A stretch of 63,954 nucleotides of DNA, counting the filler, from Thraustochytrium aureum (taxonomy: Eukaryota): NCBI GenBank assembly GCA_012862495.1. It is 7 parts of 6 records of this genome, joined end to end, with 100 filler letters (N's around TTAATTAATTAA, not from the genome) between each part and the next. Parts side by side here need not be neighbours in the genome. Positions count along the whole stretch, not along the records: positions 19,339 to 48,809 come from BLSG01000087.1; 6 more parts are not named here. One strand, written 5' to 3'. The notes under the pieces are model-generated. The model was not told the DNA's origin and did not search any database. It saw nothing but the letters and a program-made list of their open reading frames with translations. Position 1 is the first letter of the stretch, and each line of letters begins with the position of its first letter. Positions 12,764 through 48,865 of the stretch are shown here, in pieces. A program made the position numbers and the translations under genes.

Positions 12764-15700
12764 ATGCCGCCAGGAGCGCGTTCACTTGGTGTTGCAGTGT
12801 TCGTGCTGGCCAATGTGCTGGCGCCACACACAGTGCGGGCAAACTCGGCGTGCGCTGCGCATGTTGCCAAGTCTGGAGACCAGGCCAGCACGCAAGGACG
12901 CACCCTCGTGCTCGCAGCCGGCGCAACATTTCCATATCGTCTCTACCAGGACGCGATTTTTGCATACGGCTTTGAGAACAACAATGTTGAAATCACGTAC
13001 GCAGCACTCGGTAGCGGCGGGGGGAAGTGCCGCATCATGAGCTACTGTGATGTCTGCTCCCACCCCTATAAAGACACAAGCCCCGGGACCGACGTCGCGG
13101 ATCCGGCAGCTGTGGATTTCGCCGGGAGCGACTCCCTTCTCAAGCCGGGAGACTATGAGGCCTACGACGACGTGCAAATGTTGCCTTCCGTGGCTGGCGC
13201 TGTGGTCCCAATATTCAACGTGAAAGGCGTTAGCAAGCTTGTTCTCAACAGTACGGTGGTCGCGCAAATCTTTCGCCGGTGCCAAGACGAGTCAGCGCCA
13301 AGCTGCAAACCAAACTCGATCAAGTCTTGGGCGGATCCCCGAATCCTGGAGCTCAACCCGCACGCCGAAGACGCGCTTCGGCAGGCTGGGGAGATTACTG
13401 TCGTCGTTCGAGCCGATGGCAGCGGAACGACCGAGGTATTTAGACGCGCCTTGAGCCACTTCGAGGATGCCTTTGCGGACCAAGTTGGCATCTCTTCGTC
13501 GTCGATTTGGCCCAACGTCAAGGTCTTGCATGCCAATTACAACGCTGGAGTGGCCGCGACCGTGGCGAGTACGCCGGACGCGATCGGATATTCAATCCTT
13601 GCCGAGGCCAAGACACTGGATGTCGGGTTGGCCATGATGACGAAATCCTCGACGCAAGTTGGCTTTGAGATCGAGGCATCAGCTTTGAGCACCAGTCTCG
13701 CCCTCATGGAAAAGGGCCTGGACTTTGGCAACAATGGTGACTTGCCGTCGCGCCTGACAGCCAACGTTCACGGAGCGGTCGGCTCTGGAGCCTGGCCAAT
13801 AGCATCGTACACTTACTTTGTCGTTCGGATGCGAACGACGCGCATTGGAGGGTCTTGCGCAGGTCGCGCAGCGCTTTTGAAGTTCTTGGAGTGGTTCTAC
13901 AGCAGCGAGGTTGTCGAGACACTCGCTGAGCGCCGAGGCTTTGCCGTGCTTCCGTCTGAAGTCCGCAACGTGGTCCTGGACAAAGTTCGGAGCGGGCTCT
14001 CGTGCAATGGACAGTTGCTCTTTTCGAACCCGGAACGAGTCCCGCTCATACTCCAGACTAGCAGCCTTCTAGAACCCCCAATGAGCATTCTGGCGACTGC
14101 ATATGGCGTTCTTGATTCCAAGACATCTCTCACGTTATCGGCACAAGAGGAAATGACGGTGAGCGAGCTCGCGAAGGTAGAGGGACTCGGGTCGGCGCCG
14201 TTCAGTAGTCCAAAGCTGCGCCTCGGCTTTCGCGAGACGTGGGCAGACGCAGCGCAACTGGAGAAGGATGGGGCGCTGCACATTCTTCCGCTCGTTGGTG
14301 TCGCTTGGGGCGTTTTGTTCAGTGTCTGCGGCGCGACCAACACGTCGTGCCAACAGGCAGAACTTGAAGTCACGTTGACACCAGATGGCCTTATTGGTCT
14401 CCTTACGGGGCAAGTTCTCTTCTGGGACGATCCCGCAATCGTAGCCACAACCGTAAGCGGCTCGGTGGTGGTCTTCCCTCACGAGAGCATCGTGTTCGTG
14501 CGCGCCACGGACGACATTGCACAATCCTGGGAAGCTCGCCTTGTCAGCCGATTGCGCGACCTCGGTGCTGACTTGAGCGTGACGAGCTTGCGCCGCGGCG
14601 ACGTCATCGTGGAGAAAGTTGACCATGCTAAGGCGCACGTGCACGCCACGCCATGGGCGCTCACTGTCGGGCCAATCGTTGGCCCGACTCACCTCCCTTG
14701 GCCTCCTTGCCCGCATTCGCGTGGACGAGGCTCCCGGGATCGCGCTGAGCGCGGAGACGATCCTTTCGGGAGAGTACCCCTTCGTAGCTGAGATTGCCGC
14801 GGCCTTCCCGATCGCCTTCGCCGGCCCAGAGTGCGAAAGCTTGGCGAAGACGCCTTGATTTCCGTGGGGCAGCGATTCGGCCGGCTCGTGTTCTGGCTCT
14901 TGGACAGTGCCACCCTCGCCGCACCACTCTCGCACGACAACATGGCATACTTGCCACTGCGAAACGCGTCCACGCTGGAGGCTGCAGAGAGAAGCCGGAT
15001 AGGCGTCAAGTGCGGGGGGATGAGCGTGATGCGCCCGGAGCACAAGCTCTCGACCCTCCCTCCTGCGGGGAAAATTGCTTTGCTGACAGCAATGACCGTG
15101 TTCCAGGCAGCGACACTTGGAGTGGCCTACGTCGTGGTCCAAAACCGCAGAACGGCCGTCATCCGACTCTCTACATGGACTTTCCTTGTCCAGATTTTGG
15201 CCGGGACGATAATTTCTTCGCTGTCGATTGTGCCTATCGTTCAGGACGACTCGGGGCTATTTGATAGCGTTGGGGACTATGCCGTCAGCCAAGAGGAGAT
15301 TGAGGCAGCGCTTGCGCACCTCGACACCGGCTGCACCTTGCTCCCTGTGCTTTTCTTTGTTGGGTACGCGATGGTCTTCTGCCCTCTGCTTCTGAAGACT
15401 TGGCGGATCAACAAGTACTGGCAACAAGCCACGAATCGCACCCGGCATCAAGTCAGCATCCCGACCTCGGTGCTTATCAAGTACGAGGTGGGGATAATTG
15501 GCACCGTTGTCCTGATTCTCGTACTTTGGAGTGCACGAGACCCGCTTCGCTGGGAGCGCGAGGTGCTGGCGGTAGACACGCTCACGGGCCGCCCCATCGA
15601 GTCCGTCGGGCGGTGCGTGTCCAGCTCGGCCATGAGTTACTTGGTGCCGCTCTTGTGCTTTGTGATTTTGACCTTGTTTGCGGGCACGTACCTCGCATTC

Positions 15701-16225
15701 AAGGGTCGAAAGGTGGCTGTTGCCTTTGCCGAGGGCAAGTGGATTGCGCTCGCACTGGCGAACTACCTCGAGTGCTTCGTCCTATGCCTGCCGATCTTGA
15801 TTCTGACAAGGGAGACCGCCGCAGCAGACAGCGCTGTCAAGGCAAGCTTTGTACTCCTCGTAAACACAGGAACCGTGGCAATCATCTTTGGCCCGAAACT
15901 GTTCATCATGGCGCAAGATCCAGACGGCAACATGTCGGGGGGTGCCAACGGGTGGAGCCAAACGCCTTCGAATCGGGGGAATGGTGAACTTCCGCAACAC
16001 GCGGCAGGGAAGCAAGGCCCTCGCGCGGGGCGGCGCGCTAAAGCGATGCAGCGCGTCGTACCAACGTCAGTTGCGCGCAGTTCCGTAGGAGGCGAGGTCG
16101 CCGCATTGAGTGCAGTGAGCACATTTTGCATCGAGGACAACGATGCAGAAGCAGAGGACCAGTTTGAGTCGAGCAGAGGCCATTTCGATGCCGCAAGCGA
16201 AAGAAGACGCCAGATGGCCTTTTGA
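12764..16225 (+). CDS. PstS-like phosphate-binding domain(s) fused to a class C (7tm_3-like) GPCR; two frameshifts near 14690 and 14850
   Basis: Signal peptide, then PstS motifs AAGATFP, YAALGSGGG, VDFAGSD, VVVRADGSGTT, AIGYS, GAWPIASYTY. A second degenerate PBP domain follows (LLTGQVLFWDDPAI, EYPFV). Seven hydrophobic segments carry class C motifs GYAMVFCPLLLKTWRI, FAEGKWI and IFGPKL. Confidence 0.8.
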
Positions 16226-28783: not shown

Positions 28784-30193
28784 CTATGATGCGTTCTTTT
28801 TACGACGCACTGCCGCAACGACACCTTCCACGAGATCCGGTTCGGCATCAAAGAATATTTGGCCGTCCAGCGCGAGGAGCTCAGGTAGCAATTTTGCCTC
28901 ATCCGCGCTTAGCCCTGGTTTTCCAAGGCGTTCTTCAACCTCAGACGCAGACGCCAGAAAGTGGACGATGACGGTGCCTTCAGTCTTTGCCTCACGTTCC
29001 AAGGCTACGCGGGCCTCGTTAATGCAATACTTCGAGTCAAAAAAGTCGACCAGGTTGACGATAATCAGGATGACGTGCGCTTCTTCGAGTGCGCGCTTCA
29101 TCTCTTTCGTAGGGTTGCCGGACACCGGAAGGTTTTTGGCGTCCAAGAACGGCTCAAGGCCTTTATTTTGGAGTATTTCCCGGAAACTGTTTGCGTCGAA
29201 CTTGTTGGAGCCGCGATGCACGATGAACACGTCGTAGTGGCGATTAACAGGAGCAGGACGGGGTGAAACCATGCCGCTCGTGGAATCTCCGCCGTCGTCG
29301 CTTGCACCAGTGGACCCTAGCCCACGTCCGGCTCTCTTCTTCTTACGCACCACATAAACGATTGGGCAAACGAAAACAGCGAGGACAAAGACACTACCGA
29401 CGACAATTCCAGCAATGGCACCAGGACCAATCGACGCTGCGGAGGCGTCGCTCTCGTCCCCGCGCAGTCCTGACGTCTCCGTCGGCGTGCTTGATGGCGC
29501 CCCAGTCGCTTGGTCTGCCGTAGGAGCGGTGCTGGGCGTTTCGGACAAGGCGGCGGTTGGCGAAGTGCTTGGCGAGGATGTTGGGGAGACGCTGGGCCGA
29601 GCGCTCGGTGAATTGGTCGGTTGCCGCGTCGGGCCACTCGTTGGGGCTTTGGTCGGGCCACGAGTCGGGGACTTGGACGGCCCGCGAGTCGGGCCTCTCG
29701 TTGGGGCTTCGGACGGCTCGGGCGTGGGCCGCGGGACCTGAATCGGCCCGCAATCCGTGCAGTCCGTGCCAAGTTTGAGCGGCTGCTGGGTGGGGTATCC
29801 GCTGCTATCGTCACATAGCTGTCCTGCGCCTGGAGGATCTGGGCACCCCAGGGCTCCGCTGTCTTCAACTCGCGTTAAGCCGTGCTCCGAGTATGTATCA
29901 AAGCACAGCTCAACAGTGGCTTCCGTTGCGCTCGGGCAAGTCCCGCACGTCACGGGACACTGGCGCCTAACGCGCACCCCGAAGTTGGAGTTCTCACCGC
30001 AGTATTGCGCGAGCTCCAAGCAGCTGTTGCCACCGCCTTCCCAATCCGGGCAATCGCTGCCAATATGGACAGTCGGCCTGCCGTTGTCACGAATGTGGTC
30101 TTCCCAACCGGGGCACCACTGCCCGACAGCATTCTGCTGCGCGAGCATCAGCGCCATTATCAGCAACAGCAGTTTCGTTCTCATCATCTTCAT
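28784..30193 (-). CDS. Receptor 1: signal peptide - ShK-like + Cys-rich ectodomain (type A) - PST stalk - TM - canonical TIR
   Basis: MKMMRTKLLLLIMALMLAQQNAVG signal; CLELAQYC...RRQCPVTCGTC; GTDCTDCG; PT/PS repeats; TM AIAGIVVGSVFVLAVFVCPIVYVV followed by RKKKR; TIR YDVFIVHRG...PFLD...VILII...FFDSKYCINE. Confidence 0.85.
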   Translation of the reverse strand: MKMMRTKLLLLIMALMLAQQNAVGQWCPGWEDHIRDNGRPTVHIGSDCPDWEGGGNSCLELAQYCGENSNFGVRVRRQCPVTCGTCPSATEATVELCFDTYSEHGLTRVEDSGALGCPDPPGAGQLCDDSSGYPTQQPLKLGTDCTDCGPIQVPRPTPEPSEAPTRGPTRGPSKSPTRGPTKAPTSGPTRQPTNSPSARPSVSPTSSPSTSPTAALSETPSTAPTADQATGAPSSTPTETSGLRGDESDASAASIGPGAIAGIVVGSVFVLAVFVCPIVYVVRKKKRAGRGLGSTGASDDGGDSTSGMVSPRPAPVNRHYDVFIVHRGSNKFDANSFREILQNKGLEPFLDAKNLPVSGNPTKEMKRALEEAHVILIIVNLVDFFDSKYCINEARVALEREAKTEGTVIVHFLASASEVEERLGKPGLSADEAKLLPELLALDGQIFFDAEPDLVEGVVAAVRRKKNAS

Positions 30194-30729: not shown

Positions 30730-32890
30730 GTTTGAAACGCGCTTTGACGCCTCCTATCCCTGCTCCGACTCCCCCAAAACAAAAGACAGCGACGTCACCG
30801 GCAGCAACACTACCAAAGCCAAATGCTGAGGCACCTCCCACGCCGGCAGCGCCAAGGAGTGCTGGAGCGGCGAATCCAATCAAAGCACCAACAAGGATCC
30901 CTCCCGTCAAACGTGGGAACCTGCTCTGCCAGGCGCCTGGCGGCGTGATTGGGATTTTCCCTCGGCCAACGCCGTCGTCGCTATTGACCTTTGAAAGCCA
31001 CGTTTTGAAGGACTCGGTCTCGGCGAGAGCTTTGTGCTCGAGCGCCCACAGTTTCTCGAGCTCTTGCGGGAGGCTGGTGTCGACGGTGGAGGCCAAGCTC
31101 TTGGCTTGGACGCGCCAGGCACCTACCTCGCAGAGGACATGGAGCACCTTCCGTGGAAACTCGCGCTTGGCCGCATCCCCGCTGAAGAGCTTTCGAATTG
31201 TGTCCTTTATCCAACTCTTGAGCTCACTTTCTTGCGCCTTGCCACTCTCGGCTCTGACGTTGCTCAGCACCTCGTCAGCTTCGTCAAACCAAACCGGGAC
31301 CCCTGGGCGCTCAACGTTCGACCTCCACTCGGAGCCCTCCGCAGATACCCGCCAAGCTTTCACGCTTCTCAGGTCTTCAACTTTGTGCTCCTCCTGAGCG
31401 CGTTTCCATACGCACTCCAGAGACTTGCTCGGTGGGGTGAGCGCTGCGAGCGCAACGCTGGCGATGAGTTTGTTCAACATGCGCAACGCCGCGTCGCAGT
31501 TTGCGTCTGATGATTCAGCAGACGTAAAGGTGTTGTCCGGACCCCAATAGCCCCTCTTCGCGGCCAGGTCCTGGATTTCAGCGTCAAGGTCGCTGATGAC
31601 GCTCTCCCAAGCTCTAGCGACTTGGTTCGAGTACTTGCCGCCTTCTGATAGCTCCACGAGTTGGAAAAGCTCCTCCGACTCCGCGCGAAGTGCCTGGAGG
31701 CCCGCAAGCAGGGTGACCTCGCTTGGGCTTTCAACGCGAATGCTCCGCCAACGGTCGTCTGGCGTTTTTGGAAGGGAACCGTCGAGGAGGCCACGAAAGG
31801 TTGTCATTAGGACCGCAAACCGTGCCCGAGCCATACCAAAAACGAGCTCTTTCCAGAAGTCCTTGACACCTGCCAGCTCAGCAGTCTTTGCCGCAATGTC
31901 CTTGTGAGCCGCATTGGCTCTAGCTCGCTCAGCATTTCCGTCATCCCGGAAACCTAAAAATGACCATGGCCCAGGTACGCGCAGTCCCCACGTACCCTCA
32001 GACGGCTGTCTGTTGCCAGTGTAGTCCCTGAGGACGGTGAGCTGGTTGAGGAAGTGTGTCTGCTCGCCGCCCTCGAGGTCTGGGAGGAGAGAGTAGAACT
32101 TACGAATCAGCTCGCAGTTGGCGAGGTCGCAACCCCTGCATTGGCTGTTCAGGGCGTCCACTCCGCGAGTGAAGTAGAGCGACACCTTTCTCGATTCGAA
32201 GTGTTTGGAGAGGTACTCCTTGTTGTAGATTGTCTTTGCGTTGCTACTGACTTTCTCGCGCTCCCTCTGCTCCACTGCATCCATCTTGTTGATGAACACA
32301 GCGACAGACGCCCGCGTGCCAGAGCGGCGCACAAGCTCCGCCAATTCCTCGAACTTTGTTGAACCGACGTCGGTCGTCGGAATCACCATGGCGATCAACG
32401 TGGCCTTCTTCAGTTCTTCGCAAATGACGCCTTCTCGATGCTCGCGGCCATTCGCCTCGTCTGCGCCTGGAAGGTCCACAATCTCGACACCGCCAAGACG
32501 GAGGTCCAGGTAATCCTTCATTGGTTTCATGTTGGCTTCAATTACAAGCCGCGGGATCGTCGTCCTCCTGTTTTGATGTTCAATCCAGCTTCGTGGGCCG
32601 GCAGCAGGATCGACCTGCGTTCCTTGGGTTTCGCTTGGCCCTTGGCTTTCGATTGGCCAAACACGAAGCGTCGGCTCGCCTTCGACATGGCCCCTGAAAT
32701 GTCCAGCCTCCATACTTTCCACGTGCCGCACTAGTGTTACGGTGGCGGTTTCGATCATTGCGGCGCTTGGCAACAGGTACGCTCCGATAATCGCGTTGAG
32801 GATCGTACTCTTGCCGGCGTTCTGTGTGCCCAACGCAGCGATGCGGAGCACGGAGGCGTCCGCGTCGTTGTTGAAATCCAGTCCAACCAT
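30730..32890 (-). CDS. Dynamin-like GTPase of bacterial DLP/mitofusin type with C-terminal Gly-rich hydrophobic segment; 3' end in gap
   Basis: G1 IAALGTQNAGKSTILNAIIG, LLPS..ETAT (G2), IVDLPG (G3) and INKMD (G4), then a helical region and GGILVGALIGFAAPALLGAAGVGG. Confidence 0.8.
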
Positions 32891-33934
32891 CCTCGGTAGT
32901 GCCTGCGCGCCCCCGTGCTGAGACTCAGCAAAGCCTGGCCTGTACTAGTAGGTATCTGCTTCGCGATTTGCGTGCAGCAAGCCTCGCTCGCGATGCGGGA
33001 CTGCCGACCGCGCTGGGATGGCATCCTGGTTAAACTAGNNNNNNNNNNNNNNNNNNNNNNNNNNNNNNNNNNNNNNNNNNNNNNNNNNNNNNNNNNNNNN
33101 NNNNNNNNNNNNNNNNNNNNNNNNNNNNNNNNNNNNNNNNNNNNNNNNNNNNNNNNNNNNNNNNNNNNNNNNNNNNNNNNNNNNNNNNNNNNNNNNNNNN
33201 NNNNNNNNNNNNNNNNNNNNNNNNNNNNNNNNNNNNNNNNNNNNNNNNNNNNNNNNNNNNNNNNNNNNNNNNNNNNNNNNNNNNNNNNNNNNNNNNNNNN
33301 NNNNNNNNNNNNNNNNNNNNNNNNNNNNNNNNNNNNNNNNNNNNNNNNNNNNNNNNNNNNNNNNNNNNNNNNNNNNNNNNNNNNNNNNNNNNNNNNNNNN
33401 NNNNNNNNNNNNNNNNNNNNNNNNNNNNNNNNNNNNNNNNNNNNNNNNNNNNNNNNNNNNNNNNNNNNNNNNNNNNNNNNNNNNNNNNNNNNNNNNNNNN
33501 NNNNNNNNNNNNNNNNNNNNNNNNNNNNNNNNNNNNNNNNNNNNNNNNNNNNNNNNNNNNNNNNNNNNNNNNNNNNNNNNNNNNNNNNNNNNNNNNNNNN
33601 NNNNNNNNNNNNNNNNNNNNNNNNNNNNNNNNNNNNNNNNNNNNNNNNNNNNNNNNNNNNNNNNNNNNNNNNNNNNNNNNNNNNNNNNNNNNNNNNNNNN
33701 NNNNNNNNNNNNNNNNNNNNNNNNNNNNNNNNNNNNNNNNNNNNNNNNNNNNNNNNNNNNNNNNNNNNNNNNNNNNNNNNNNNNNNNNNNNNNNNNNNNN
33801 NNNNNNNNNNNNNNNNNNNNNNNNNNNNNNNNNNNNNNNNNNNNNNNNNNNNNNNNNNNNNNNNNNNNNNNNNNNNNNNNNNNNNNNNNNNNNNNNNNNN
33901 NNNNNNNNNNNNNNNNNNNNNNNNNNNNNNNNNN

Positions 33935-35450
33935 CCTCGTACGGCATTACATCGCCAACCCGAACGCGGTGATCCTTGTGGTGATCCCGATAACCGACGA
34001 CCTGCAGACGTCGGAGGCGATCCAGCTGGCGCGCGAGTACGACAGGCCGGGCGTGCGCACCCTTGGCGTCCTGACCAAGCCAGACCACGTTTTGGCAGAC
34101 TCGTCGCGCAAGGAGTTCATGGCGAGGGCACTAAAATCGGGCGGGGGCCCGGACACTCCACTCAAGCTCGGATACATCGCTGTTCGCACGCGCAAAGGAG
34201 ACGAGCACGGCCCGCTCTCGCAAGTCCTCGAGGCTGAGCGCACGCTTTTCAGCTCGGACCCTGTCTTCGGCCAGCTGGACAGGTCGCTATGGGGCATTGA
34301 GACGCTGCGATCGCGCGTACTCTCGATCCAATCCAGGTTTCTCCGCGCGTTTCAAAAGGGCTTTGCGTCCTCGGTCCAGGCTCGAAAGGGTGAGCTGGAG
34401 GCAGAGCTTGCTGAGCTAGGAGGTTTGGAGCCCGGGGAGGAGCACGACGTACTACTTGGGTTTTTCCGACGCCTGAACGCCGTCTTTGACAGGGTTACGA
34501 TCAGAAGGGAGAGTGGGAACATGCCGAACGCGGCGCTTCTTGGGATGCACTTCGACGAGGCTGCCTTGGAGTTTGGGCGGAACATCACCGAACGGATTTG
34601 CCCCACGCCAGGGTTTTTCAAGAACGACGAGGCGACGCTTGCAGACGTGCGGGCTCTGATCCAAGACCTTGGCTCCAGTGGCGAGTTGGACAGCCTCGGG
34701 GTGTTCAACAATGTCGTCCGGAGGCACATCGCGGAGCCCGCCAAGCAAGTCGTGGAAGAGTTTGTGAGGCAGGCGAACTTCTTTGTGCAACAAGCGCTAG
34801 GTGCGATTCTCGGAATGGACGACCTCCGCGCGCTGGCCCGCAAGTGCCCGAAGATCTGCTCCAACCTGCTCGAGTCAATCAGGGCCAAGGAAGCCGAGCT
34901 CTGCCAGAGCACGCTCGCGTTTGTGAACGACCTCATCGAGGCTCAAGCAGATTACGCGCGGTTTGGGAGAGACTTGCCCTTGGGTAGCGGCACTGAGATC
35001 GTCGGGCTCATCCAAGGCCTTGGGCTGGATCAGGAGACCCAACTCGTCAGCGCTGTCAGCGCTGTTTGCGGCCAGCCTGGAGCAGTCGTCTTTCGTGCGT
35101 TCATGAACCGCGTTGGGCGCGCTTCACCCGCGAGTTCCCCCATGGGAGACCGCGGGGCCGCGTGGATTTGCCACAAGCTTCAGTGCCGGGCAGAACGTGC
35201 GGTCGCCGCATTCGAAGAAATTATCCCTCGTATAGTCTGGCGCAAGCTCGTCAAAGGGTACGAGGCCGTCTTCGAAGGCCTCCAATCAGATCTCGCCAAA
35301 GACTCTGATCTGCGCAAGCTTTGGACCGAAGAAAGTGGCACTGTTGTCGAGGAACGCAGAGCTCTTGAGGATCGCATTAGTAGGCTGGGTCGTAGCTTGG
35401 AAAAGCTGGAGCAAGTCGAGTTGCGCAGCGCAATGCTCAGCTTGGTTTGA
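33935..35450 (+). CDS. Mx-like dynamin-family GTPase (N-terminal part lost in N gap)
   Basis: ILVVIP...TSEAIQLAREYD...RTLGVLTKPD (G4 with Mx-type TKPD), LKLGYIAVRTR, WGIETLRSR, helical middle domain and GED-like end (EERRALEDRISRL). No PH or proline-rich domain is visible. Confidence 0.8.
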
Positions 35451-35619
35451 GAAAAAAAAGGCTCTTGCCAATGGCGATAAAACTGATTCGTTCGGTCGAC
35501 TCGATGTGGTCGATGCCCTTCCACAGCTCGTTGGTGGGCTACGCTACGTGAGGCGGAAGGCTCGACCTGAACGAGCCGAACGAAGCAGCACTGTCGAACC
35601 TTCTGAAGGCAGCCCAAGC

Positions 35620-36244
35620 CGGCAGTCTAGCTGCGCTACTAAGGCTGCTCGCTGAGAGGACCAGCCCCATGGGGACTGGAACGCTGACTGTGAGGCCACT
35701 CATGGGCGCCTCGATGCCAAATAAGAAATGAAAACTTACCCCGGCCTCAATTAGATCGCCAAGGTTTCTCGCCAAGAACGTCGCCGCCTCCCAACCTGTC
35801 ACATTCTTAGTCAGCCAGTTTGCCGACTCAGTCAACTCCAGCTCACGTAGTCCCTCGCTGGTGGCGCTGAAGGGGGCGAGAAACACAGCCAACGCTCTCG
35901 GCGGAGCGATCGCGCAGTTCTTCCATAGCATTGCGAAACCCGTGGTCCGTAAGCTCCCTTGCCGAAGACAAGAAGACGACAACGCGTTTTGGCCTTTTTG
36001 GAGCGCAACGACTCAAACGCCGAGCCAGCGACCTCAAGCTCGCGCAACCATGTGGTTTTGATGCCCCGCTTGTCAAGCCCTTTGCTGACTTTGTTAACCA
36101 GGCGGGCGTGCTGCTGCGTTGCAAGAAAGACACCCGGCAAACCTCATTGTGCGGGTCTCACAGGCACGTCTGCTCGGCGTTGCAGGTCGCCTCGCTCTGC
36201 AGCTGGGCGCTCGCGCAAAACGCCCTTGCCCCGGCCTCGTCCAT
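35620..36244 (-). pseudogene. Receptor remnant 2: start of type B ectodomain joined directly to a frameshifted VTGWEA TIR-like domain
   Basis: From ATG 36244 reads MDEAGARAFCASAQLQSEATCNAEQTCL*DP (TGA where paralogs have TGG). It continues across frames as FLATQQHARLV, VVVFLSSARELTDHGFRNAMEELR and ANWLTKNVTGWEA. Stalk and TM are absent. The 3' boundary is approximate. Confidence 0.7.
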
Positions 36245-37506: not shown

Positions 37507-38992
37507 TTACGCCTCATTCGCCCGCTTGTAGACATGATGGATGTGCGGGAACCTCCCAGTTGCAAAGTACGATTCCACGCCGGCCAGGACCAAGCGGTCC
37601 AGGTTGTATACCTTGAAGGGCTCTGCCTCCCAGCCCGTCACGTCCTGGAAAAGCCAGCTCGCCGCGTCGCTGTTCTCGGACTGTTTCAAGTCCTCCTTGA
37701 GCGCGTGCAGCGAGCTCAGAAAAACCGGCAAGACCTTCAACGGCACCACTTGGAAGCTGTCCGCATGGCGGTCGCGCAGCTCGCATAGCGCGGAGCGCAG
37801 CGCTGGGTCATCGACAAGCTCTTGCGAAGAGGAGAGCAACACCACCACAACGCATGCCTTATCGATGCACGACGGTCGGACGGCGCGGCTGGCTTGGTTT
37901 GCGGCGGGAGGCTCGATCACGCAATCGATGCCATTTGCAAGCAAGCCGTCCCGAACCGCTCGAGCCGGGCGAAAGTGATGTTTGTGGCACAGAATGACGA
38001 CCGGGCCGGTTGGCGCGATGGAGAGCTGTCCCAGTGGGCCGTCAAAGTCGCTCTTTGTTTGCCTTGCGCGACGACGACGCGAAAACCAGGCCACAAAACT
38101 TGCCACAAGCAAAAGCAAGCCCACTCCAGTCCCCACTCCAGCGTATACTCCCGCGTCGACTTGCTCCTGGGTGTCTTTTCCTGCAGCCGCAGGTTCGAGG
38201 GCGGATGGGCCCGAGGTTGCAGGCGCGCCGAGCGGTGCTGAAGTTGGACTAGTCTCACTGGCAGAGCTGTTGGTCGGCGCTGGGCTGGGCGGGTAAATGG
38301 GCTTGCGGCTGGGCGCTTGGCNNNNNNNNNNNNNNNNNNNNNNNNNNNNNNNNNNNNNNNNNNNNNNNNNNNNNNNNNNNNNNNNNNNNNNNNNNNNNNN
38401 NNNNNNNNNNNNNNNNNNNNNNNNNNNNNNNNNNNNNNNNNNNNNNNNNNNNNNNNNNNNNNNNNNNNNNNNNNNNNNNNNNNNNNNNNNNNNNNNNNNN
38501 NNNNNNNNNNNNNNNNNNNNNNNNNNNNNNNNNNNNNNNNNNNNNNNNNNNNNNNNNNNNNNNNNNNNNNNNNNNNNNNNNNNNNNNNNNNNNNNNNNNN
38601 NNNNNNNNNNNNNNNNNNNNNNNNNNNNNNNNNNNNNNNNNNNNNNNNNNNNNNNNNNNNNNNNNNNNNNNNNNNNNNNNNNNNNNNNNNNNNNNNNNNN
38701 NNNNNNNNNNNNNNNNNNNNNNNNNNNNNNNNNNNNNNNNNNNNNNNNNNNNNNNNNNNNNNNNNNNNNNNNNNNNNNNNNNNNNNNNNNNNNNNNNNNN
38801 NNNNNNNNNNNNNNNNNNNNNNNNNNNNNNNNNNNNNNNNNNNNNNNNNNNNNNNNNNNNNNNNNNNNNNNNNNNNNNNNNNNNNNNNNNNNNNNNNNNN
38901 NNNNNNNNNNNNNNNNNNNNNNNNNNNNNNNNNNNNNNNNNNNNNNNNNNNNNNNNNNNNNNNNNNNNNNNNNNNNNNNNNNNNNNNNNCAT
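37507..38992 (-). CDS. Receptor 3: (ectodomain in N gap) - PST stalk - TM - VTGWEA TIR-like domain
   Basis: Stalk at 38200-38320; TM VGLLLLVASFVAWF followed by SRRRR; PVVILCH...VVVVLLSS...ALCELR...VLPVFL...WLFQDVTGWEA. The putative ATG is at the gap edge (38992). Confidence 0.7.
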
Positions 38993-39811: not shown

Positions 39812-41275
39812 TCATTTGCGTTTGTACACATCCTTCAAGGGCGGAATGCGCTCTGTGGATAAGAATTGTTCCACTCCAATGTAGATGAGCTGGTCTAGGC
39901 CATCCGTCACGTACTGCGCTGCCTCCCATCCCGTCACGTTATTCCAAAGCCAATCCACGGACTCGGCATGCGACGACAAAGTAGACCGGTAGTCGCTCTT
40001 CAAGCCTACAAGCGGCGTCATGTATACCACGAGTACAGTAACACACGAATCACGCTCTCCTTCCGCATGCAGATCTCGTAGCTCGCGGATGGCATCTTGT
40101 AGCTTTGGAGAACTGTCATACTCTCTCGCGGAGGGAAAAATGACGACCGCAAATTCGGCTTCCTGTAAGCGATGCGCAGTCATCTGGTCGTCTGAAGCAG
40201 TCTCGGGATCGACAGGACGCACGGAATCCAAAGGGGCCACAATCTCGCAGGTAAACCGCTTGCCTTTGTCCTGCAAGAAGCGGTCTTGGAGCGCCTTGGC
40301 CAGGGCGCTTTTTCCCCGATGGCAAATAACGACGACTCGCAGGGCATGCTTCGGGCTGGGCAGCCAGCATGCTGCACGAGCAAGNNNNNNNNNNNNNNNN
40401 NNNNNNNNNNNNNNNNNNNNNNNNNNNNNNNNNNNNNNNNNNNNNNNNNNNNNNNNNNNNNNNNNNNNNNNNNNNNNNNNNNNNNNNNNNNNNNNNNNNN
40501 NNNNNNNNNNNNNNNNNNNNNNNNNNNNNNNNNNNNNNNNNNNNNNNNNNNNNNNNNNNNNNNNNNNNNNNNNNNNNNNNNNNNNNNNNNNNNNNNNNNN
40601 NNNNNNNNNNNNNNNNNNNNNNNNNNNNNNNTTGTTGGACGCTGGAATTGGCGATCTTGTCGGCGGTGGGCTCGGAGTTCGGCTTGGGGCAGGACTCGGG
40701 CCTGCGCTAGGGGACTTGCTTGGGCCTGCGCTAGGGGACTTGCTTGGGCCTGGGCTAGGCGATTTGCTCGGGCCTGGGCTAGGTGACTTGCTCGGCCGGC
40801 CTGACGGAGTCTCCGTTGGGGACTTGGTCGGCGGCGTCGGTCGCGGTACGGAGAGTGCAGGGGATCCGCAGTCAGTGCAGTCTGTCCCCAGAGAGCAAGA
40901 GCTTGAACTCGAACCCAGCCTGCCATCATCGCAGAATGGCAAGACGGACGCACATCCAAACGCACCGCCATCCTCGACACGAAAGCAACTATCAAAGCAC
41001 AGGTCAGCAGTAGGGTTTGTCGAGCTCGGGCATGTGCCACACGTGACAGGGCACTGCCGCCGAACGCGTTCGCCCCTGTTGGTTTGCTCACCGCAGTACC
41101 CAGCCAGCCCTGCACACGACACGCGAAAGGCCACAGCGCACGGCACGGCTGGGTCTACGAACGGATTAGGGCTATCCCCAACGTGACCCTCCCATCCGGG
41201 GCACCACTGCGCGGCCGCCGCTAAGCAGGCATGCGCGGCGATCACCGCGGCCAGGCCGGCCTTCCGCTGCCACAT
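39812..41275 (-). CDS. Receptor 4: signal - ShK-like type A ectodomain - stalk - (TM in gap) - VTGWEA TIR-like domain
   Basis: MWQRKAGLAAVIAAHACLAAAA|QWCPGWE; RRQCPVTCGTC; GTDCTDCG; PSKSPS repeats; RVVVICHRG...AVVIFPS...AIRELR...VLVVY...WLWNNVTGWEA. Confidence 0.8.
   Translation of the reverse strand: MWQRKAGLAAVIAAHACLAAAAQWCPGWEGHVGDSPNPFVDPAVPCAVAFRVSCAGLAGYCGEQTNRGERVRRQCPVTCGTCPSSTNPTADLCFDSCFRVEDGGAFGCASVLPFCDDGRLGSSSSSCSLGTDCTDCGSPALSVPRPTPPTKSPTETPSGRPSKSPSPGPSKSPSPGPSKSPSAGPSKSPSAGPSPAPSRTPSPPPTRSPIPASNXXXXXXXXXXXXXXXXXXXXXXXXXXXXXXXXXXXXXXXXXXXXXXXXXXXXXXXXXXXXXXXXXXXXXXXXXXXXXXXXXXXLARAACWLPSPKHALRVVVICHRGKSALAKALQDRFLQDKGKRFTCEIVAPLDSVRPVDPETASDDQMTAHRLQEAEFAVVIFPSAREYDSSPKLQDAIRELRDLHAEGERDSCVTVLVVYMTPLVGLKSDYRSTLSSHAESVDWLWNNVTGWEAAQYVTDGLDQLIYIGVEQFLSTERIPPLKDVYKRK
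40690..40795 (-). repeat. Coding 24-bp tandem repeat (PSKSPS[P/A]G x4) in receptor stalk
   Basis: Repeated gggcctg(c/g)gctagg(g/c/t)ga(c/t)ttgct units. Confidence 0.8.
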
Positions 41276-41924
41276 CCCGATAGTGCTCTGCGTTGCATCA
41301 ACATACAGCGAGCTGGCAAGTGGCGAAGAGTATTGACCGAGCGCGTTGCGCTCTCATGGCCGCACCGCTCTGGATGCCGGGCAGGTCCCGGCAGAGGCGC
41401 AGCAGCAAAACAGCTGCCGAGTTAGCCAGCGGCACGCACGCCAGTATGCGTCGAGGCGGCAAGGCGCCTTGCTCTTCTTTTTTCCCGTTTCTCGCTCTTG
41501 ACCGTGGAGTGCACGGCTCGGGGTTTTGTTTCGTTTCGGGCTTGCCAAGTGCACGATACTCAGCCCTCGCATCGAATCCGAGCTCAAGAGTCGTCGCCTT
41601 GGTGAATTGATGCCCGACTGGCGCGAAACACGGACGGCGCGCTATCGATGGCGGCCGGTTCGGTCGAGGTGTGACCGAGGTTGACCCTGGCTTGAGAGAG
41701 TCCATCCAGTGCCACCACTGACTTCATCCATCATCCCTTCATACTACGCTCTTGGCAGAGGTGACCGACATTGTCAACGTGGTTGATGCACTCCTCGATC
41801 TCTCCGGCAGGCCGAGCGAGCACAGGCGGCTCCAGCAGCTCCAGGACGCTTGAGCGCGCTCGTGTTGCGCAGACCCGAGACGGATTCGGTACTCGCGGAC
41901 CAGCCGCAGCGCGCCGGCAGGTAG

Positions 41925-43463
41925 ATGGCGCTGCGACGGGGCAAGCGGGGGGTGGTGGCAGCTGCGGCGGTGGCCACGCTGCGCTCTGGCTTGGCAGCCG
42001 CGCTGTGGTGCCCCGGATGGGAAGGCTATATTGAAGACGCGCCGTTCGCTACGACAATTGTCATCGATAGGCCTTGTCCAGCATGGCATTACGAATGGCA
42101 GGGGGAACTCGTGACTGCTGCAACGTGCTCAGAGCTCGTTAGTTACTGCAGCGAGCAGACCCCCCTCGGGGAGCGCGTTCGGCGTCAGTGCCCCGTTTCG
42201 TGTGGGTCCTGCCCGAGTGCGACGAGCTCGGTCGCCGACCTTTGCTTTGACACTTGCACAACTCGCGTTGAGGACGACGGCGCAGTGGGCTGCTCCGATG
42301 TCGCGCCGGTAGGGCTATGCGACGATGGTAGGGCGGGCTCGATTTCCACGGCCTGCCCTCGAGGGACCGACTGCTCCGACTGTGGGGTTGCTCTCTCCGT
42401 ACCGCGGCCGACGCCGCCGACCAGCTTTCCCACAGCGCATCCCTCAACCAAAGCACCGACGAAAAGCCCGTCACGTCGGCCGACCAAGTCGCCCTCGAGC
42501 GGCCCGTCACGTCACCCTTCCAAGGCCCCGACAGCAGGCCCGACGCGTCAGCCGAGCAGGTCGCCGAGCAACTCGCCTAGTGCTCACCCGAGCGTTTCAA
42601 CAGGCGGAACTTCCAGCGGAGCTCCAACTCGGGCGCCGAGCGCCGCACCGAGCGCAGCCCCGAGCGCTGCCCCGAGCGCTGCCCCGAGCGCCGCGCTCGC
42701 GTCGGGACAAGCAAGCAGGGATCCAACATCGGCGCCGACGCTTGGCCCGACGGCTTTGCGAATCAGCGAAGACGACCCCTCGGAAAGTCTCGGCGCTGGT
42801 GCGATTGTTGGGATCCTCCTTGGGCTTGCTTTGCTCGCTGCCATCTTTGCTTTTGTGCGGCGGAAGAGATATCCTTCAATTATCGCGGGCGAGAAATCGC
42901 AGCAGACTTCCTATGATGTGTTCATCGTGCACCGCGGTGATAACAAGTTCGACGCCAATATAGTCCGAGAAAAGCTGGAAATGCTCGAACGCCTCAGGCC
43001 ATTCTTGGACGCCAAGAGCCTGAAAGTCGGTGGCGACCCCACAGCGGAAATGCAACGCACCCTTAGCGAAGCACCGGTCATTTTGATCCTGATCAGCCTG
43101 ATCAGCTTTTTCGACTCCAAGTATTGCGTCCAGGAAGCCCGGACAGCCCTGGAACGTGAAGCAGAGGTCAAAGGCACAGTCATCGTTTACTTCTTGGGAA
43201 GTCAGGAAGAAGTCGAGGAGCACCTCAGAAAACCAGACCTCAGCAAGGACGAGCGAGAGTTGCTTCCCAAGCTCTTTGCACTCGATTCACAGAGGCTCTT
43301 CGAGGGTGGCGACGATTCCTATAGCTCTCTTTTGAAGCTCGTCGCTGATGCGGTGAAGCGCAATAAGAAGCAAAGGGCTGTCCCGAGCGAAATGCCCTTG
43401 GCCGCGACGGGCGCCGCGAGCGAACAAGGTCAATCTAGCCCGGTAGCGAGCTCTACAACCTGA
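41925..43463 (+). CDS. Receptor 5: signal - ShK-like type A ectodomain - stalk - TM - canonical TIR (complete, uninterrupted 512-aa ORF)
   Basis: LWCPGWE; RRQCPVSCGSC; GTDCSDCG; PSAA repeats; TM AIVGILLGLALLAAIFAFV followed by RRKR; TIR YDVFIVHRG...PFLD...FFDSKYCVQE. Confidence 0.9.
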   Translation: MALRRGKRGVVAAAAVATLRSGLAAALWCPGWEGYIEDAPFATTIVIDRPCPAWHYEWQGELVTAATCSELVSYCSEQTPLGERVRRQCPVSCGSCPSATSSVADLCFDTCTTRVEDDGAVGCSDVAPVGLCDDGRAGSISTACPRGTDCSDCGVALSVPRPTPPTSFPTAHPSTKAPTKSPSRRPTKSPSSGPSRHPSKAPTAGPTRQPSRSPSNSPSAHPSVSTGGTSSGAPTRAPSAAPSAAPSAAPSAAPSAALASGQASRDPTSAPTLGPTALRISEDDPSESLGAGAIVGILLGLALLAAIFAFVRRKRYPSIIAGEKSQQTSYDVFIVHRGDNKFDANIVREKLEMLERLRPFLDAKSLKVGGDPTAEMQRTLSEAPVILILISLISFFDSKYCVQEARTALEREAEVKGTVIVYFLGSQEEVEEHLRKPDLSKDERELLPKLFALDSQRLFEGGDDSYSSLLKLVADAVKRNKKQRAVPSEMPLAATGAASEQGQSSPVASSTT

Positions 43464-44961
43464 CGCAACTCGATGAAGACTGTTTTCTAGAATGCTGTGC
43501 GCGACCGCCGGGAGACCATGGAACGCGACGAGGCGCAGAGGCAAGAGCGTCAATAAGTCCGCGGCGTGACCAGACTTTTTAAACAGGACCCACGGCGGTT
43601 AAGAAGTGCTCTTGACCATCGGGCTCCTCCCATTCAAAATGCGAGAGCGGGAACCTGGTCAGTGGATAGGCGNNNNNNNNNNNNNNNNNNNNNNNNNNNN
43701 NNNNNNNNNNNNNNNNNNNNNNNNNNNNNNNNNNNNNNNNNNNNNNNNNNNNNNNNNNNNNNNNNNNNNNNNNNNNNNNNNNNNNNNNNNNNNNNNNNNN
43801 NNNNNNNNNNNNNNNNNNNNNNNNNNNNNNNNNNNNNNNNNNNNNNNNNNNNNNNNNNNNNNNTTTCCCTGCTCTGCTCGGCTTGCGAATGCTGTACCCG
43901 AAAGTGCCGGGCGGCGATTCCGCCCTCGAGTCTGCCGGCTGTTGTTCACGAAACTCGGCTGCTTTTGGCATTTTGAACGTCGGCGTACGTGCCGACCTGA
44001 TGCGATGCAAGCGAAACTCGTGGAGCGTCCCTGCTCGCTTGCGTCAAGAGGCTTCACCTAAAGCATCACGCTGACCACCCCTATTTCTCTCCATGCTTGC
44101 TTTTTAAATTGTGCTGTCCGGACAGCGTGCAAGTGCAGGCGAACGTATTCCCTAGCGACGGCTTTGGCGGCTCCCATCCCCACGTAGAGTTCGCATCTGA
44201 GTAGAGTACAACTGGCTGGTCCAACCAGCAGGGTCGTTGAACCAATCGCATGATCATGTTCGCTGGTGATTCTCGCCAGCGCCCCCTTCATTCTTGGCCA
44301 ACACCGCGACGCGAACAACTTGCGACCACGCAGGCACATGCAAGCTCGACTTCGGCGACACACGCCACGGGCAGGGCGGCCGCGACGACAGCATCGAGCT
44401 CGATGCTGCCAGAGGATGGGCATGTGGAGATGAGTGAGATCACAGGATCATCTGGGCATATTTTCCGACAGATCGACACTGTACCGACGCGCACGTCGAG
44501 AAAAAGCGCGCTCGAGCCATTCCTTGCTGTTCACAAGACGAGGTGGGCACCAACTAAACCGAGGTGTGTCGGTCGTTCGTCCGGGTGCATGGCGCGTGCC
44601 AGACGCGTTTGCTGTAGCCAGCAAAGGTAGGTACAACGTCGCCCGCAAGGCTCAACAGGGCCTCATGGATCTGCGCTTCTCGTGGCCCCGCGCGCGCTCA
44701 AGTGTCGCGCTCAAGTCTCATCGCTGGATGACAGAATCGCATCGCATTTTTCAACTGGATCGAGACGCATGCTGGCCGGCCGACGAACGGACTGCGTGCG
44801 GGTGCACGCAGTGCCCACCGGGTGTGGTAGAGCCGAATCTCGCAGAACTCCGTGGGGCAAGGCTCGCCGAGCTTGCGTAGCAGAGTCGAGACTCGCAGCA
44901 CTCCGCGGGCGCAAGGTTCGACCACAGGCGCCAAGCCGGCGTTGCAGACGGTAGACGGGGG

Positions 44962-46353
44962 ATGGATAAGGCCGAGGCCGAAGCGTTCTGCGGCGAGTTT
45001 CTGGGGCAGACCAGCTGCAATGCGGAGCAGACGTGCTTGTGGAATCCCATGGCCGGGAGCTGCATGGTCGCCTTGACGTTCAACTTTTGCCAAGCGATGA
45101 ACGGGGACCCGGTCGACTGCGGCTTTTGGTCGCAATGCGAGTTCAAGACGGTGAACGGCATTCCAAACACTTGCACCGCCGCGCAGCGGCCGGCGGGATG
45201 GAATTGCGAGCAACCTGATTACAACCAAAATCGTTGCCACTGCGGATGCGGGATCTGGGACCCGGATTGCGACAAGTCTCCCCCGGACGACGCGAACGAT
45301 GCGAAAGCCACGTGCGGGCCGTGGGCTTCCCAAATTCCAGAGATCGGCAAGTACTGCGACTACTCGTCAAACACCTGCGCGACTCTGAGCCCAACCGCGT
45401 TACCGACCAGAACGCCAACGAGCCACCCGAAGCAGGGCACCGAGCAAAGCCCCGAGCAAAGCTCCAACACGAACACCGACCGAGGCGCCGAGCACTCGGC
45501 CCAGCGCAACCCCGAGCGCAACCCCGAGCGCATCGCCAAGTGCTATGGTAGCAACCCAAGCACCGAGCCACGCGCCGAGCTTGTCCCCACATCGGCAGCC
45601 GACGGGCAGTGTAACGGGCGGCAGCCCAACGACCCGGGCGCCGTCCGGTTTGCTTCCGACCAGTTCGCCAACGCCCTTCCTTGCTGCTGCAGCCCTCGCT
45701 GACGAAGGCGAGAGTGTCGCAGTCATTGTCGGGGCGACTGCGGCCGGTATTCTTTGCTTGCTTGGCGTTCTCGTCTTTTGGCTGTGCCGCAGGAGATCGT
45801 CAGGGCCAGCTTCCGGCCCTCGGGGGCCGGTCGTCATCCTTTGCCACAGGCAGCACGGCAACATAGCTCGAAATATCCTTGCGGGTCTGTGCGACAAGGG
45901 CTTCGAGTGCGCGATTGAGCCTCCGCTGAAGCCCGAGGATGCCGTCGCCGGCCAGCCTTCCAGCCTGGAGAAAGCCCAGCTCGTTGTCGTTCTCCTCGCA
46001 TCCGTGAAAGAGCTAGACGATGATCCCGCGCTCGCCAACGCCCTTCGCGCGTTGCGCGGTCGTCACGCGGAGGCCAGAGGCCAGGGTCTCGTTGTCTTTC
46101 CAGTGCATTTGAGCTCGCTCGGCGCGATCAAGACCGGCTCTGGAGAGTCTGCATGTTTGGACGTTCTGAACTGGCTTACCCACGAGGTGACCGGGTGGGA
46201 GGCAGAGCCGTACAAGGCAGGCAGCCTGGACCTCCTCGTCATCCATGGCGTGGAATCTTACTTTGCAACAAGCACGATCCCCCAATCAACGCGGCCTTCC
46301 ACCACGTGGAGCCCCCACGCCTCGAGAGCAATCCGCCGAGCGCAAGGCAATGA
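44962..46353 (+). CDS. Receptor 6: type B Cys-rich ectodomain - stalk - TM - VTGWEA TIR-like domain; frameshifts near 45430 and 46283
   Basis: CNAEQTCLWNP, RPAGWNC, CHCGCGIWDPDC; stalk; TM VAVIVGATAAGILCLLGVLVFWL followed by CRRR; PVVILCH...WLTHEVTGWEA. The start and signal peptide are uncertain. Confidence 0.75.
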
Positions 46354-46783
46354 TCATGATGATGGATGATGCGGCTGATGATGAACGGGAAAAGGACGAT
46401 GATTCATTGATGAACGAAAAAGCACTCGGCAAGTCCGCAAACAAGGTGTGTACCCCTCTGCTCACAAATAGGCCCAGGCCTGCCTTGCACACTCTGCCTA
46501 CCAGCCAGCCAGCCAGCCCCACGAAAAACGTGGTGAGAGTAAGCGAACAAGTGCGAGTGGGTACAGGGCGTCAAGTTGAACCGGATGGCGCACCGGCAGG
46601 AGACCGGCAGAGCTGCTGCCCGATCACAAGCTGCGGCCGAGCAGCGAGCAGCTTGATCACTCAACAGCAGACCTGAAACGAAATCAGGAGCGGAAGGCCG
46701 CGAGAGCCCGACGGCGACAGGGCGCTTCATGCACCAACCACGACGCACGAAGCTTTACGAGAACGGACTAGCGTTGCTTGGGG

Positions 46784-48138
46784 ATGGGCTTCGGGTACGA
46801 CGACGCCGTGCTGCTCTGCTCGCCGCTCCAAAGCCAAAGCACTTGTAATGCGGAGGATAGCTGCCTCTGGGATCCGGGCGATGGCACATGTAGAGCGTCC
46901 GACTGGGTGAGGTTTTGCTCCTACGCGAACACGGTGGCCGACCCTGAAACGGAATGCAAGAAAAGCTTTCACTGCCAGTACACGCGAGTCGGTGGCCAAG
47001 ATGGCGTCTGTACCACAGCGCCGCGGCCTGCTGGCTGGGTCTGCGAGGCGCCGGCTTTCTTCAATGGTGGATGCGACTGCGGGTGCGGGGTGCGTGACCC
47101 TGACTGTTTTACTGGCGGGAGTCCATGTATTCATGCGGTCCGTGGGACCGCAATGTCGACGTCGAACTCGTTTGCGACTACGAGACGAACTCATGCGTGT
47201 CGAAAGCTCCAACCCCCGGTCCGTCTAGATCTCCGACCCGCGGACCGTCGTCAAGGCCGACCTCGGTGCCCAGCGCCTCGCCAACAACTACGCCGACGAG
47301 CGCGCCTAGCCACACTCCGAGCAAGACGCCAAGTGAGGCCCCCGCTGGGTCGACGCTGAGCCCGTCTAGTTTGTCGACGATCATGCCCAGCTCGGCGCCG
47401 AGCTTGGAACGCACTTTGGCGCCGAGCTTGGAACCCACTTTGGCGCCGAGTTTGGCTCCTTCTGCTCAGCCCAAGGTCTTTACTGGAGCCCAGGCAGGGG
47501 GGGAGCCAGCGCAGCTGAGTAGCGTTGGACTGGCGGCTTTGGGAGGGCTCGTCGCTTTGTTCGTCGTGGGGGCGCTTGTTGTACTCGGATGGTGGCGCAA
47601 GCGCAAAGGCCCCGTTCCCGTGGCGCACCCCTTGTATTTGATAGAGCCAACAGAGCCAGTCGCGATCCTGGCCACGGCCCAGCATGCGAGACTGGCTCGC
47701 GCAATACAGGGCTCCTTGAGTCAGCGGAGCGTGACGAGTCAGATTGAGCCTTCGAGAGAGAGAGGCGGCGTATCCGCCATCGAGCGCGCACAGCTTGCGC
47801 TGGTACTGTTTTCGTCTGCGCGCGAGCTAGAGGATGAGGGTTTCCGCGCGATGATGCAAGAGCTGCGAGCCCGGGCCGACGATGAGACCTTGCGCATTTT
47901 CCCAGTCTATCTCACTGCGTTCGAGCCGCTCGAAACTGCCGTTCGCGCTTCGGAGCACGCGGAAGCAGCGTCCTGGTTGTTTCGCGGCGTTACTGGGTGG
48001 GAGGCAGATCTCTTCGCGACGCCCAGCCTCAGCGACATGGTGGCCAAAGCCGTGGAGACGTTTTTTGCGTGCGGAGTGATTCCCGACATCAAAGATACCT
48101 ACGTGCTTTTCCACCGGGTTGAAGAAGATCCAGTCTAG
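46784..48138 (+). CDS. Receptor 7: type B Cys-rich ectodomain - stalk - TM - VTGWEA TIR-like domain; frameshift near 47120
   Basis: CNAEDSCLWDP, RPAGWVC, CDCGCGVRDPDC; APSLEPTL repeats; TM LAALGGLVALFVVGALVVLGWW followed by RKRK; PVAILAT...MMQELR...IFPVYL...WLFRGVTGWEA. Confidence 0.78.
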
Positions 48139-48684: not shown

Positions 48685-48809
48685 ATGGACGAGGCCGGGG
48701 CAACGGGCGTTTTGCGCGAGCGCCCAGCTGCAGAGCGAGGCCACCTGCAACGCCGAGCAAACGTGCCTCTGGGACCCCGCATGATGAGGTTTGCCGGCTG
48801 TCGGCATGG
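48685..48809 (+). CDS. Receptor 8: 5' fragment of a type B ectodomain gene, cut off by the scaffold end
   Basis: Near-identical (inverted) to 36130-36255. Reads MDEAGAT-AFCASAQLQSEATCNAEQTCLWDP-HDEVCR after removing two homopolymer insertions. Confidence 0.6.
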
Positions 48810-48853: not shown

Positions 48854-48865
48854 TTAATTAATTAA
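48854..48865. other. Artificial contig spacer
   Basis: N-flanked TTAATTAATTAA. Confidence 0.97.

Follow-up and report, generated by a model that had tools for sequence, protein, structure and literature searches.

Head-to-head receptor genes in Thraustochytrium aureum join related cysteine-rich ectodomains to a canonical TIR domain and to a diverged domain with a predicted TIR fold

Introduction

Toll-like and IL-1 receptors of animals and choanoflagellates combine a signal peptide, an ectodomain, one transmembrane (TM) segment and a cytoplasmic TIR domain (layout as given for Toll-like receptors, PMC6040629). Plant pairs of receptors with nucleotide-binding and leucine-rich repeat regions (NLRs) are marked by head-to-head position and a diverged TIR (PMC13725568), and in vertebrates linked genes encode receptors that resemble each other in the ectodomain but differ in the tail (PMC13358205). 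Some protist TIRs are NADases (10.64898/2026.04.20.719644), TM-TIR genes are induced in virus-resistant Gephyrocapsa huxleyi (PMC12489294), many diverged eukaryotic TIR clades are described as unstudied (PMC13142454), and Mx-like dynamins are widespread in protists (PMC11789081). Here we describe a cluster of receptor genes, R1 to R8, in a 63,954-nt stretch of the genome of Thraustochytrium aureum (assembly GCA_012862495.1; hereafter the window), centered on the head-to-head genes R4 and R5.

R1 and R5 have the Toll-like layout of signal peptide, ectodomain, single TM segment and cytoplasmic TIR, but carry short Cys-rich modules on a proline/threonine/serine (P/T/S) stalk, with no leucine-rich repeats (LRR) or immunoglobulin (Ig) domains, and nothing outside the TIR points to shared ancestry. 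Like the G. huxleyi TM-TIR proteins (PMC12489294) and other protist TIRs (10.64898/2026.04.20.719644), they place an extracellular region before an intracellular TIR with a conserved Glu in a unicellular eukaryote, with a possible antiviral role; judged by the descriptions there, in which we found none of the three, the locus is set apart by its paralog cluster, its Glu-less partner and its ectodomain exchange. RPS4/RRS1 paired TIR-NLRs (PMC13725568) are likewise head-to-head genes with one Glu-bearing and one diverged, Glu-less TIR, as are R4 and R5 at a distance of 649 bp; the same source reports that dead TIRs vary more than active ones in plant pairs, which we note as a likeness. RPS4 and RRS1 are, however, intracellular NB-LRR proteins, whereas R4 and R5 have no NB-ARC or LRR match in Pfam and share a sensor domain, so the resemblance would be one of working principle only. 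Siglec-5/14, Siglec-11/16 and PILR (PMC13358205) are also linked genes with similar ectodomains and different cytoplasmic outputs, shaped by duplication and conversion. There the ectodomains are kept near-identical by ongoing conversion and the outputs are immunoreceptor tyrosine-based inhibitory or activation motifs (ITIM/ITAM), whereas the R4 and R5 ectodomains are 61% identical and the outputs are a pseudo-TIR and a TIR. With their head-to-head position, related ectodomains, and one intact and one apparently dead TIR, R4 and R5 are reminiscent of paired immune receptors.

Results

Layout of the receptor genes

The window is a gapped scaffold with 29 runs of N, of which positions 19,339 to 48,809 come from record BLSG01000087.1. 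Between 28.8 and 48.8 kb it carries, in order, R1(-), two dynamin-family GTPase genes, R2(-) and R3(-), a decayed fragment of type B, R4(-) and R5(+), then R6(+) and R7(+), and finally R8(+), of which the start is present. The receptors draw on two ectodomain types, A and B, and on two endodomains, a canonical TIR and a domain designated VTGWEA. The genes on which the analysis turns are the following.

39812..41275, minus strand: R4; signal peptide and type A ectodomain (40835-41209), then a stalk containing 24-nt repeats, a TM segment that falls in the gap, and the VTGWEA domain (39845-40342)
40385..40631: gap of 247 N interrupting R4, for which bridging contigs give 256 bases with the frame kept
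41276..41924: R4-R5 interval; 649 bp separating divergent start codons
41925..43463, plus strand: R5; signal peptide, type A ectodomain (42003-42407), stalk, TM segment, canonical TIR (42909-43367) with Glu at the catalytic position
28784..30193, minus strand: R1; signal peptide, type A ectodomain (29726-30118), P/T/S stalk, TM segment, canonical TIR (28793-29239) with Glu at the SxxCxxE position
37507..38321, minus strand: R3; stalk end, TM segment, VTGWEA (predicted pseudo-TIR) domain, the ectodomain falling in a 668-N gap
44962..46369, plus strand: R6; type B ectodomain, stalk, TM segment, VTGWEA domain (45824-46273)
46784..48138, plus strand: R7; type B ectodomain, stalk, TM segment, VTGWEA domain (47656-48078)

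As a first-pass annotation of the window had it, R1 and R5 each join a type A ectodomain to a canonical TIR, and R6 and R7 each join a type B ectodomain to VTGWEA. R1 and R5 have a signal peptide, stalk, TM segment and a Pfam TIR_2 match (E 6e-10 and 1.7e-8; 40.1 and 35.4 bits against a curated cut-off of 28); R6 and R7 have a stalk and TM segment between the two domains. The third pairing of that annotation, type A with VTGWEA in R4, spans the N gap and is taken up below. Three of the four possible ectodomain-endodomain combinations are seen in the window, from which type B with a canonical TIR is absent.

R4 is a single gene

Contig evidence came from four runs, X1 to X4, of which X2, X3 and X4 all belong to one study (P2) and X1 is possibly the source data of the window. 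Two distinct contigs in each of X2, X3 and X4 join position 40384 to 40632 with 256 letters between, and cover 138 and 178 letters on the two sides of the gap. Since 2+256 is divisible by 3, the frame is kept and both halves are in one frame. One contig of each pair is near-identical to the window and the other about 88-92% identical, representing a second R4 haplotype, and both haplotypes carry the same type A-to-VTGWEA join. Overlapping contigs tile from the R4 stalk to the start codon. In X1, the loose ends, translated by hand, continue in frame with further stalk and the end of the hydrophobic TM run. R4 is one gene, and its type A-to-VTGWEA join is real and in frame.

The first-pass annotation had itself raised the possibility that R4 is two genes or a scaffold misjoin, and the join does sit in an N gap beside tandem repeats, with no single bridging contig in X1. 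However, two differing contigs per run in X2-X4 give the same frame-keeping interval, with tiling to the start codon; a misjoin would require contigs chimeric in the identical way in two haplotypes, and is otherwise already refuted. We consider it extremely improbable.

Some further differences among the runs were seen around the pair. X2-X4 contigs leave bare both R3 and the stretch from the start of R4 to that of R5, where X1 has coverage; this was not used as evidence. At 39960-40052, X2-X4 contigs of one haplotype skip or replace 91 bases of the R4 endodomain, and at 42873, just after the R5 TM segment, X2-X4 have an in-frame 18-nt insertion.

The VTGWEA domain has a predicted TIR fold and lacks the catalytic Glu

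None of the four VTGWEA domains matched the Pfam TIR families, or any Pfam family, at E-values up to 10, and a VTGWEA profile compared with the R1/R5 TIR reached an E-value of only 0.013. The R3 domain was modelled with AlphaFold2 on a four-sequence alignment, giving a predicted local distance difference test score (pLDDT) of 83.8 and a predicted template modelling score (pTM) of 0.84; single-sequence prediction reached a pLDDT of 40. When the 1000 best Foldseek chains were realigned with VIA-align, the best match was the RUN1 TIR (Z 15.4, root-mean-square deviation 2.8 Å, 143 residues aligned), the top nine rows were plant TIRs, and the first clearly non-TIR row stood at rank 45 (Z 9.8), the rows for Cat1, SPARTA and SARM1 being ones that we take to be TIR. 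Foldseek itself ranked the RRS1 TIR first at an E-value of only 1.1e-3, with flavodoxin-like folds interleaved. In the Atlas, the top clusters were TIR (0.94), with 149-159 shared features, below the 170 typical for same-family matches. The predicted structure thus shows VTGWEA to be a highly diverged TIR fold. Kept apart from the canonical TIR in the first-pass annotation, VTGWEA is by this model itself a TIR fold and no new output module.

In the sequence alignment, R1 and R5 carry Glu in SKYCxxE, the catalytic position of alphaC. At that column none of the four VTGWEA domains of R3, R4, R6 and R7 has Glu; the residues are D, S, N and A, or A/A/A/M in the other register. The VTGWEA domains are predicted from this to be catalytically dead. 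They share 22 invariant columns across four endodomains that are 30-52% identical. Because VTGWEA is a TIR fold without the catalytic Glu, the receptor outputs would be one intact and one predicted dead TIR, not unrelated signalling domains.

R4 is a mosaic of unequally diverged halves

R4 and R5 are identical at 78/127 ectodomain positions versus 26/139 endodomain positions (p 7e-13). As in the paired layout known from vertebrates, they are linked genes whose ectodomains are homologous and whose endodomains differ. Divergence is even in two control pairs, R1-R5 with 70/130 in the ectodomain versus 92/148 in the endodomain (p 0.18) and R6-R7 with 54/137 versus 49/140 (p 0.46). No other VTGWEA domain is as near to the R4 endodomain as the R5 ectodomain is to that of R4 (p 4e-5 or less). 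R4 is therefore a mosaic, its halves unequally diverged where the control pairs are even.

In the endodomain tree (seven rows), R1 and R5 grouped together (support 100/100) and a grouping of R4 with R5 was rejected (approximately unbiased test, p-AU 0.00016). In the ectodomain module tree (49 columns), R4 grouped with R5 (86/84), the 25 outgroup modules being too short for rooting. Type A and type B ectodomains are unalignable (hhalign E 0.3), which together with the unequal divergence of the R4 halves requires at least one exchange between ectodomains and endodomains.

Across the R4-R5 interval the genes pair as mirror partners: R2 with R7 (endodomain sisters, 95/94), R3 with R6 (78/149) and R4 with R5 (ectodomain only). 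The 649-bp interval is the center of this mirror layout, R2-R3-R4 / R5-R6-R7, and we infer that it is a shared promoter.

Ectodomain modules and stalks

The first module of type A is weakly ShK-like, with Pfam E-values of 0.02-0.06 and 14.5-15.8 bits, below the cut-off of 20.9 in 3/3 genes. The second is a Cys module of the form CDDG...GTDCxDCG, which is widespread and often repeated in unrelated proteins. No LRR or Ig match was found in the ectodomains with Pfam at E-values up to 1. The Cys modules have a likeness to Notch LNR repeats, for which no Pfam support was obtained. Repetitive stalks are common to the A and B genes.

A scan for type A gave 201 matches, of which 80 loci were kept, the match being essentially to the second Cys module, and Pfam was run on 30 of 76 long open reading frames (ORFs). 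Among these 30, one also had a TIR (L047:2-6784), a 2261-aa ORF with the type A second module, at least six TM-like runs, a PDZ domain and a weak TIR_2 match of 27.6 bits, just under the cut-off. Another single ORF (L013:4822-6195) carries two type-B-like CxCGCGxxDPDC modules together with the type A second module. Both are thus Cys-rich modules of a mobile kind, and neither has a family in Pfam.

Searches for relatives

A homolog search with whole R5 gave 36 matches, of which 31 have the PT stalk family on record and none a TIR. The R5 ectodomain was found in 0/135 candidates, and the VTGWEA profile in none of the longer proteins. One VTGWEA match among 1.84 billion representatives was rejected as a repetitive spurious protein. 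Pattern scans gave no relative of VTGWEA in metagenomes or viral contigs, of the R1/R5 TIR in viral contigs, or of type B in prokaryote genomes. The PDB sequence search yielded nothing real, and the Atlas no usable match for type B. A literature search found no paper on the receptor family; relatives may be present among the TIRs tabulated in PMC13142454 and 10.64898/2026.04.20.719644.

Other genes of the cluster

The remaining features of the cluster are the following.

30730..32890, minus strand: dynamin-family GTPase 1; Pfam Dynamin_N 1.2e-15, PDB 2j68 E 4.6e-4; 3' end inside an N gap
33935..35450, plus strand: dynamin-family GTPase 2; N, middle and weak GED regions; 5' end inside a gap
35539..36244, minus strand: R2 remnant; the first Cys module of type B, containing an in-frame stop, runs out of frame into a VTGWEA domain that is itself frameshifted, without stalk or TM segment
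39282..39686, minus strand: decayed type B ectodomain and stalk start; several frameshifts; tblastn E 2e-5 and short DNA matches to R6
48686..48809, plus strand: R8; start of another type B gene, 92% identical to R2 over 129 nt, cut off by a gap

R2 had been annotated as a further type B receptor with VTGWEA. The first type B module and the VTGWEA domain are there, but the CxCGCGxxDPDC motif, stalk and TM segment are missing and the fusion is out of frame. The ectodomain of R3, hidden in the 668-N gap, is probably type B. One X1 contig (depth 5.7) joins the R3 stalk at 38321 to 137 nt that are at least 90% like the R6 ectodomain at 45136-45272 on the opposite strand, and then diverges; this patch may reflect a recent conversion between the two mirror paralogs, which in their endodomains are 66% alike.

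In the window, R6 has a +1 frameshift at 45429 and R7 a 1-base frameshift at 47113; contigs of X2-X4 have neither, and X1 also lacks the change at 45429. A hydropathy scan found no hydrophobic signal peptide at the first Met of R6 or R7 (best 11 residues 0.6-0.9, versus 2.2-3.2 in type A genes). At 29439, an X4 contig on the end of the R1 stalk continues for at least 255 unlike letters; an R1 allele of mosaic make-up is one possible cause, a short match by chance another.

The two GTPase genes (30730-35450) are divergently oriented inside the receptor cluster. GTPase 1 is a weak match to a bacterial dynamin-like protein, has a C-terminal hydrophobic run and differs at many closely spaced positions in each of the four runs (in X1, for example, at 20 over 769 nt); it is in frame with R1 across the gap, yet R1 has its own signal peptide. 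GTPase 2, possibly an Mx protein, matches Mx1/Mx2, Vps1 and dynamins at similar E-values.

Elsewhere, the window has Pfam matches to myosin, kinase, RRM and 7tm_3 genes and is of a GC-rich, intron-poor eukaryotic type. A periplasmic-binding-protein ectodomain and a family 3 G-protein-coupled receptor domain lie at 12656-16222, with a frame change near 14790 dividing them. Unsized contig joins, across which order is not guaranteed, are marked by 44 N, a linker of 12 bases with stops in all frames and a further 44 N (linker at 48854-48865 and five similar places).

Discussion

We think it fairly probable that the locus is a lineage-specific cluster of single-pass genes with a Cys-rich ectodomain, stalk, TM segment and TIR, in which R4 is a real join of type A to a diverged, dead-predicted TIR, likely made by one old exchange behind the stalk. 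Tandem and inverted duplication would have built the cluster, and crossover or conversion may have run through the repetitive stalks that A and B genes have in common, which are the likely meeting ground for exchange. A single exchange into R4 is the shortest history, and the event is likely old and fixed.

Several observations weigh against this account. All R4-bridging contigs come from one study. The R4 endodomain is sister to all B-type endodomains (90/90), which fits an intermediate and not a recipient. In the ectodomain module tree R1 with R5 is not rejected (p-AU 0.23), residues shared by R4 and R5 are weakly in excess (21 vs 10, p 0.07), and third positions give no support for R4 with R5 (28 vs 23, p 0.58). 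No donor gene was found for the R4 exchange. The likeness of the R5 and R6 stalks (71% in DNA over 139 nt, above 200/200 codon shuffles) may be overstated, as a codon shuffle does not preserve repeat periodicity. On the side of the endodomain, the model is of the R3 VTGWEA domain alone, the Glu position comes from sequence alignment and not superposition, and an activity of another kind is possible, since an invariant Glu is kept elsewhere in the domain. The B-type genes have no clear signal peptides, and several are broken.

The main rival is a history in which VTGWEA descends from a type A gene's TIR and a type B ectodomain later replaced type A once, founding R2, R3, R6 and R7, the likeness of R4 and R5 being due to old head-to-head conversion or to fast change in R1. 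The R4 endodomain does branch first among VTGWEA domains, so that the ectodomain type changes once on the endodomain tree; the HRG motif and an acidic residue in the Glu column survive only in R4, and R1 sits on a long branch in the module tree. However, such a history requires about 3 changes per site in the endodomain versus 0.5 in the ectodomain, whereas change is even in the two control pairs; it therefore needs an ectodomain exchange as well, two events in total. By pairwise score, moreover, the R4 domain is no nearer to R1/R5 than that of R6. We judge this history rather unlikely, and return to a single exchange into R4 in weighing what the first-pass annotation had proposed, namely that recombination creates sensor/output combinations. 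An exchange is indeed needed, given unalignable A and B ectodomains and the disparity within R4, but a combinatorial system is not shown and one old event suffices. The incongruence expected between ectodomain and endodomain trees is absent at the level of types, where the three type A genes lie on one side (90/90), and at the finer level it is one-sided, significant in the endodomain and not in the ectodomain.

Recurrent recombination in the population would agree with the second R4 haplotype at about 88-92% identity, the R6-like patch beside R3, the match of R2 to R8, an internal deletion in R2 and the shared stalk repeats. Yet paralogs are only 66-76% identical in DNA, and the R4 haplotypes differ from the window by 11 synonymous and 11 non-synonymous codons among 26 sites listed, with no sign of strong diversifying selection. 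Because just three of four combinations occur, the tree has a single change and the join is common to both haplotypes, the R4 join appears old and fixed, and a continuing generator of combinations seems quite unlikely to us. An equally remote account takes the cluster as birth-and-death debris, the exchange being neutral and the VTGWEA genes decaying or serving non-immune adhesion or prey sensing. R2, the remnant at 39.3-39.7 kb and R8 are broken, and R6 and R7 are frameshifted in the window and lack clear signal peptides; against this, the 22 invariant columns, the confident fold and the intact R6 and R7 frames in X2-X4 argue for long purifying selection.

With the single exchange into R4 as the background, a function can be outlined from analogy. 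Ligand-driven clustering of R1 or R5 would switch on NAD+ cleavage by their TIRs. R4, with its related ectodomain, dead-predicted TIR and head-to-head gene, could co-cluster with R5 and tune or block it, and the B-type receptors might, by way of TIR-TIR contacts, serve as brakes or as co-receptors that do not catalyse, feeding other ligands into the same network. The role is probably in defence, as two dynamin-family GTPases lie in the same block, and these with the receptor cluster possibly form a defence island. The fullest version is an independently built protist paired surface immune receptor: R5 an active TIR-NADase, R4 a same-ligand dead-TIR partner that restrains R5 from the same bidirectional promoter, the further pseudo-TIR receptors and dynamins a defence island, and sensors re-assorted via stalk repeats. 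As a whole we offer this only tentatively and think it rather unlikely.

What is new here is a previously unrecognised predicted pseudo-TIR family and a head-to-head pair of one putatively active and one predicted dead TIR. How single-celled eukaryotes sense pathogens at their surface is largely open, and the cluster provides a small set of genes that lends itself to testing: two TIR receptors that bear the Glu and have an ectodomain without LRR, a TIR-fold family missed by Pfam and by our own sequence searches, and a natural chimera linking both. If R4 does not regulate R5, the join would add one case to the exchanges of domains that are common where receptor clusters evolve fast; if it does, a protist would combine the active/dead head-to-head logic known from paired NLRs in plants with the logic of a shared ectodomain known from paired receptors in vertebrates.

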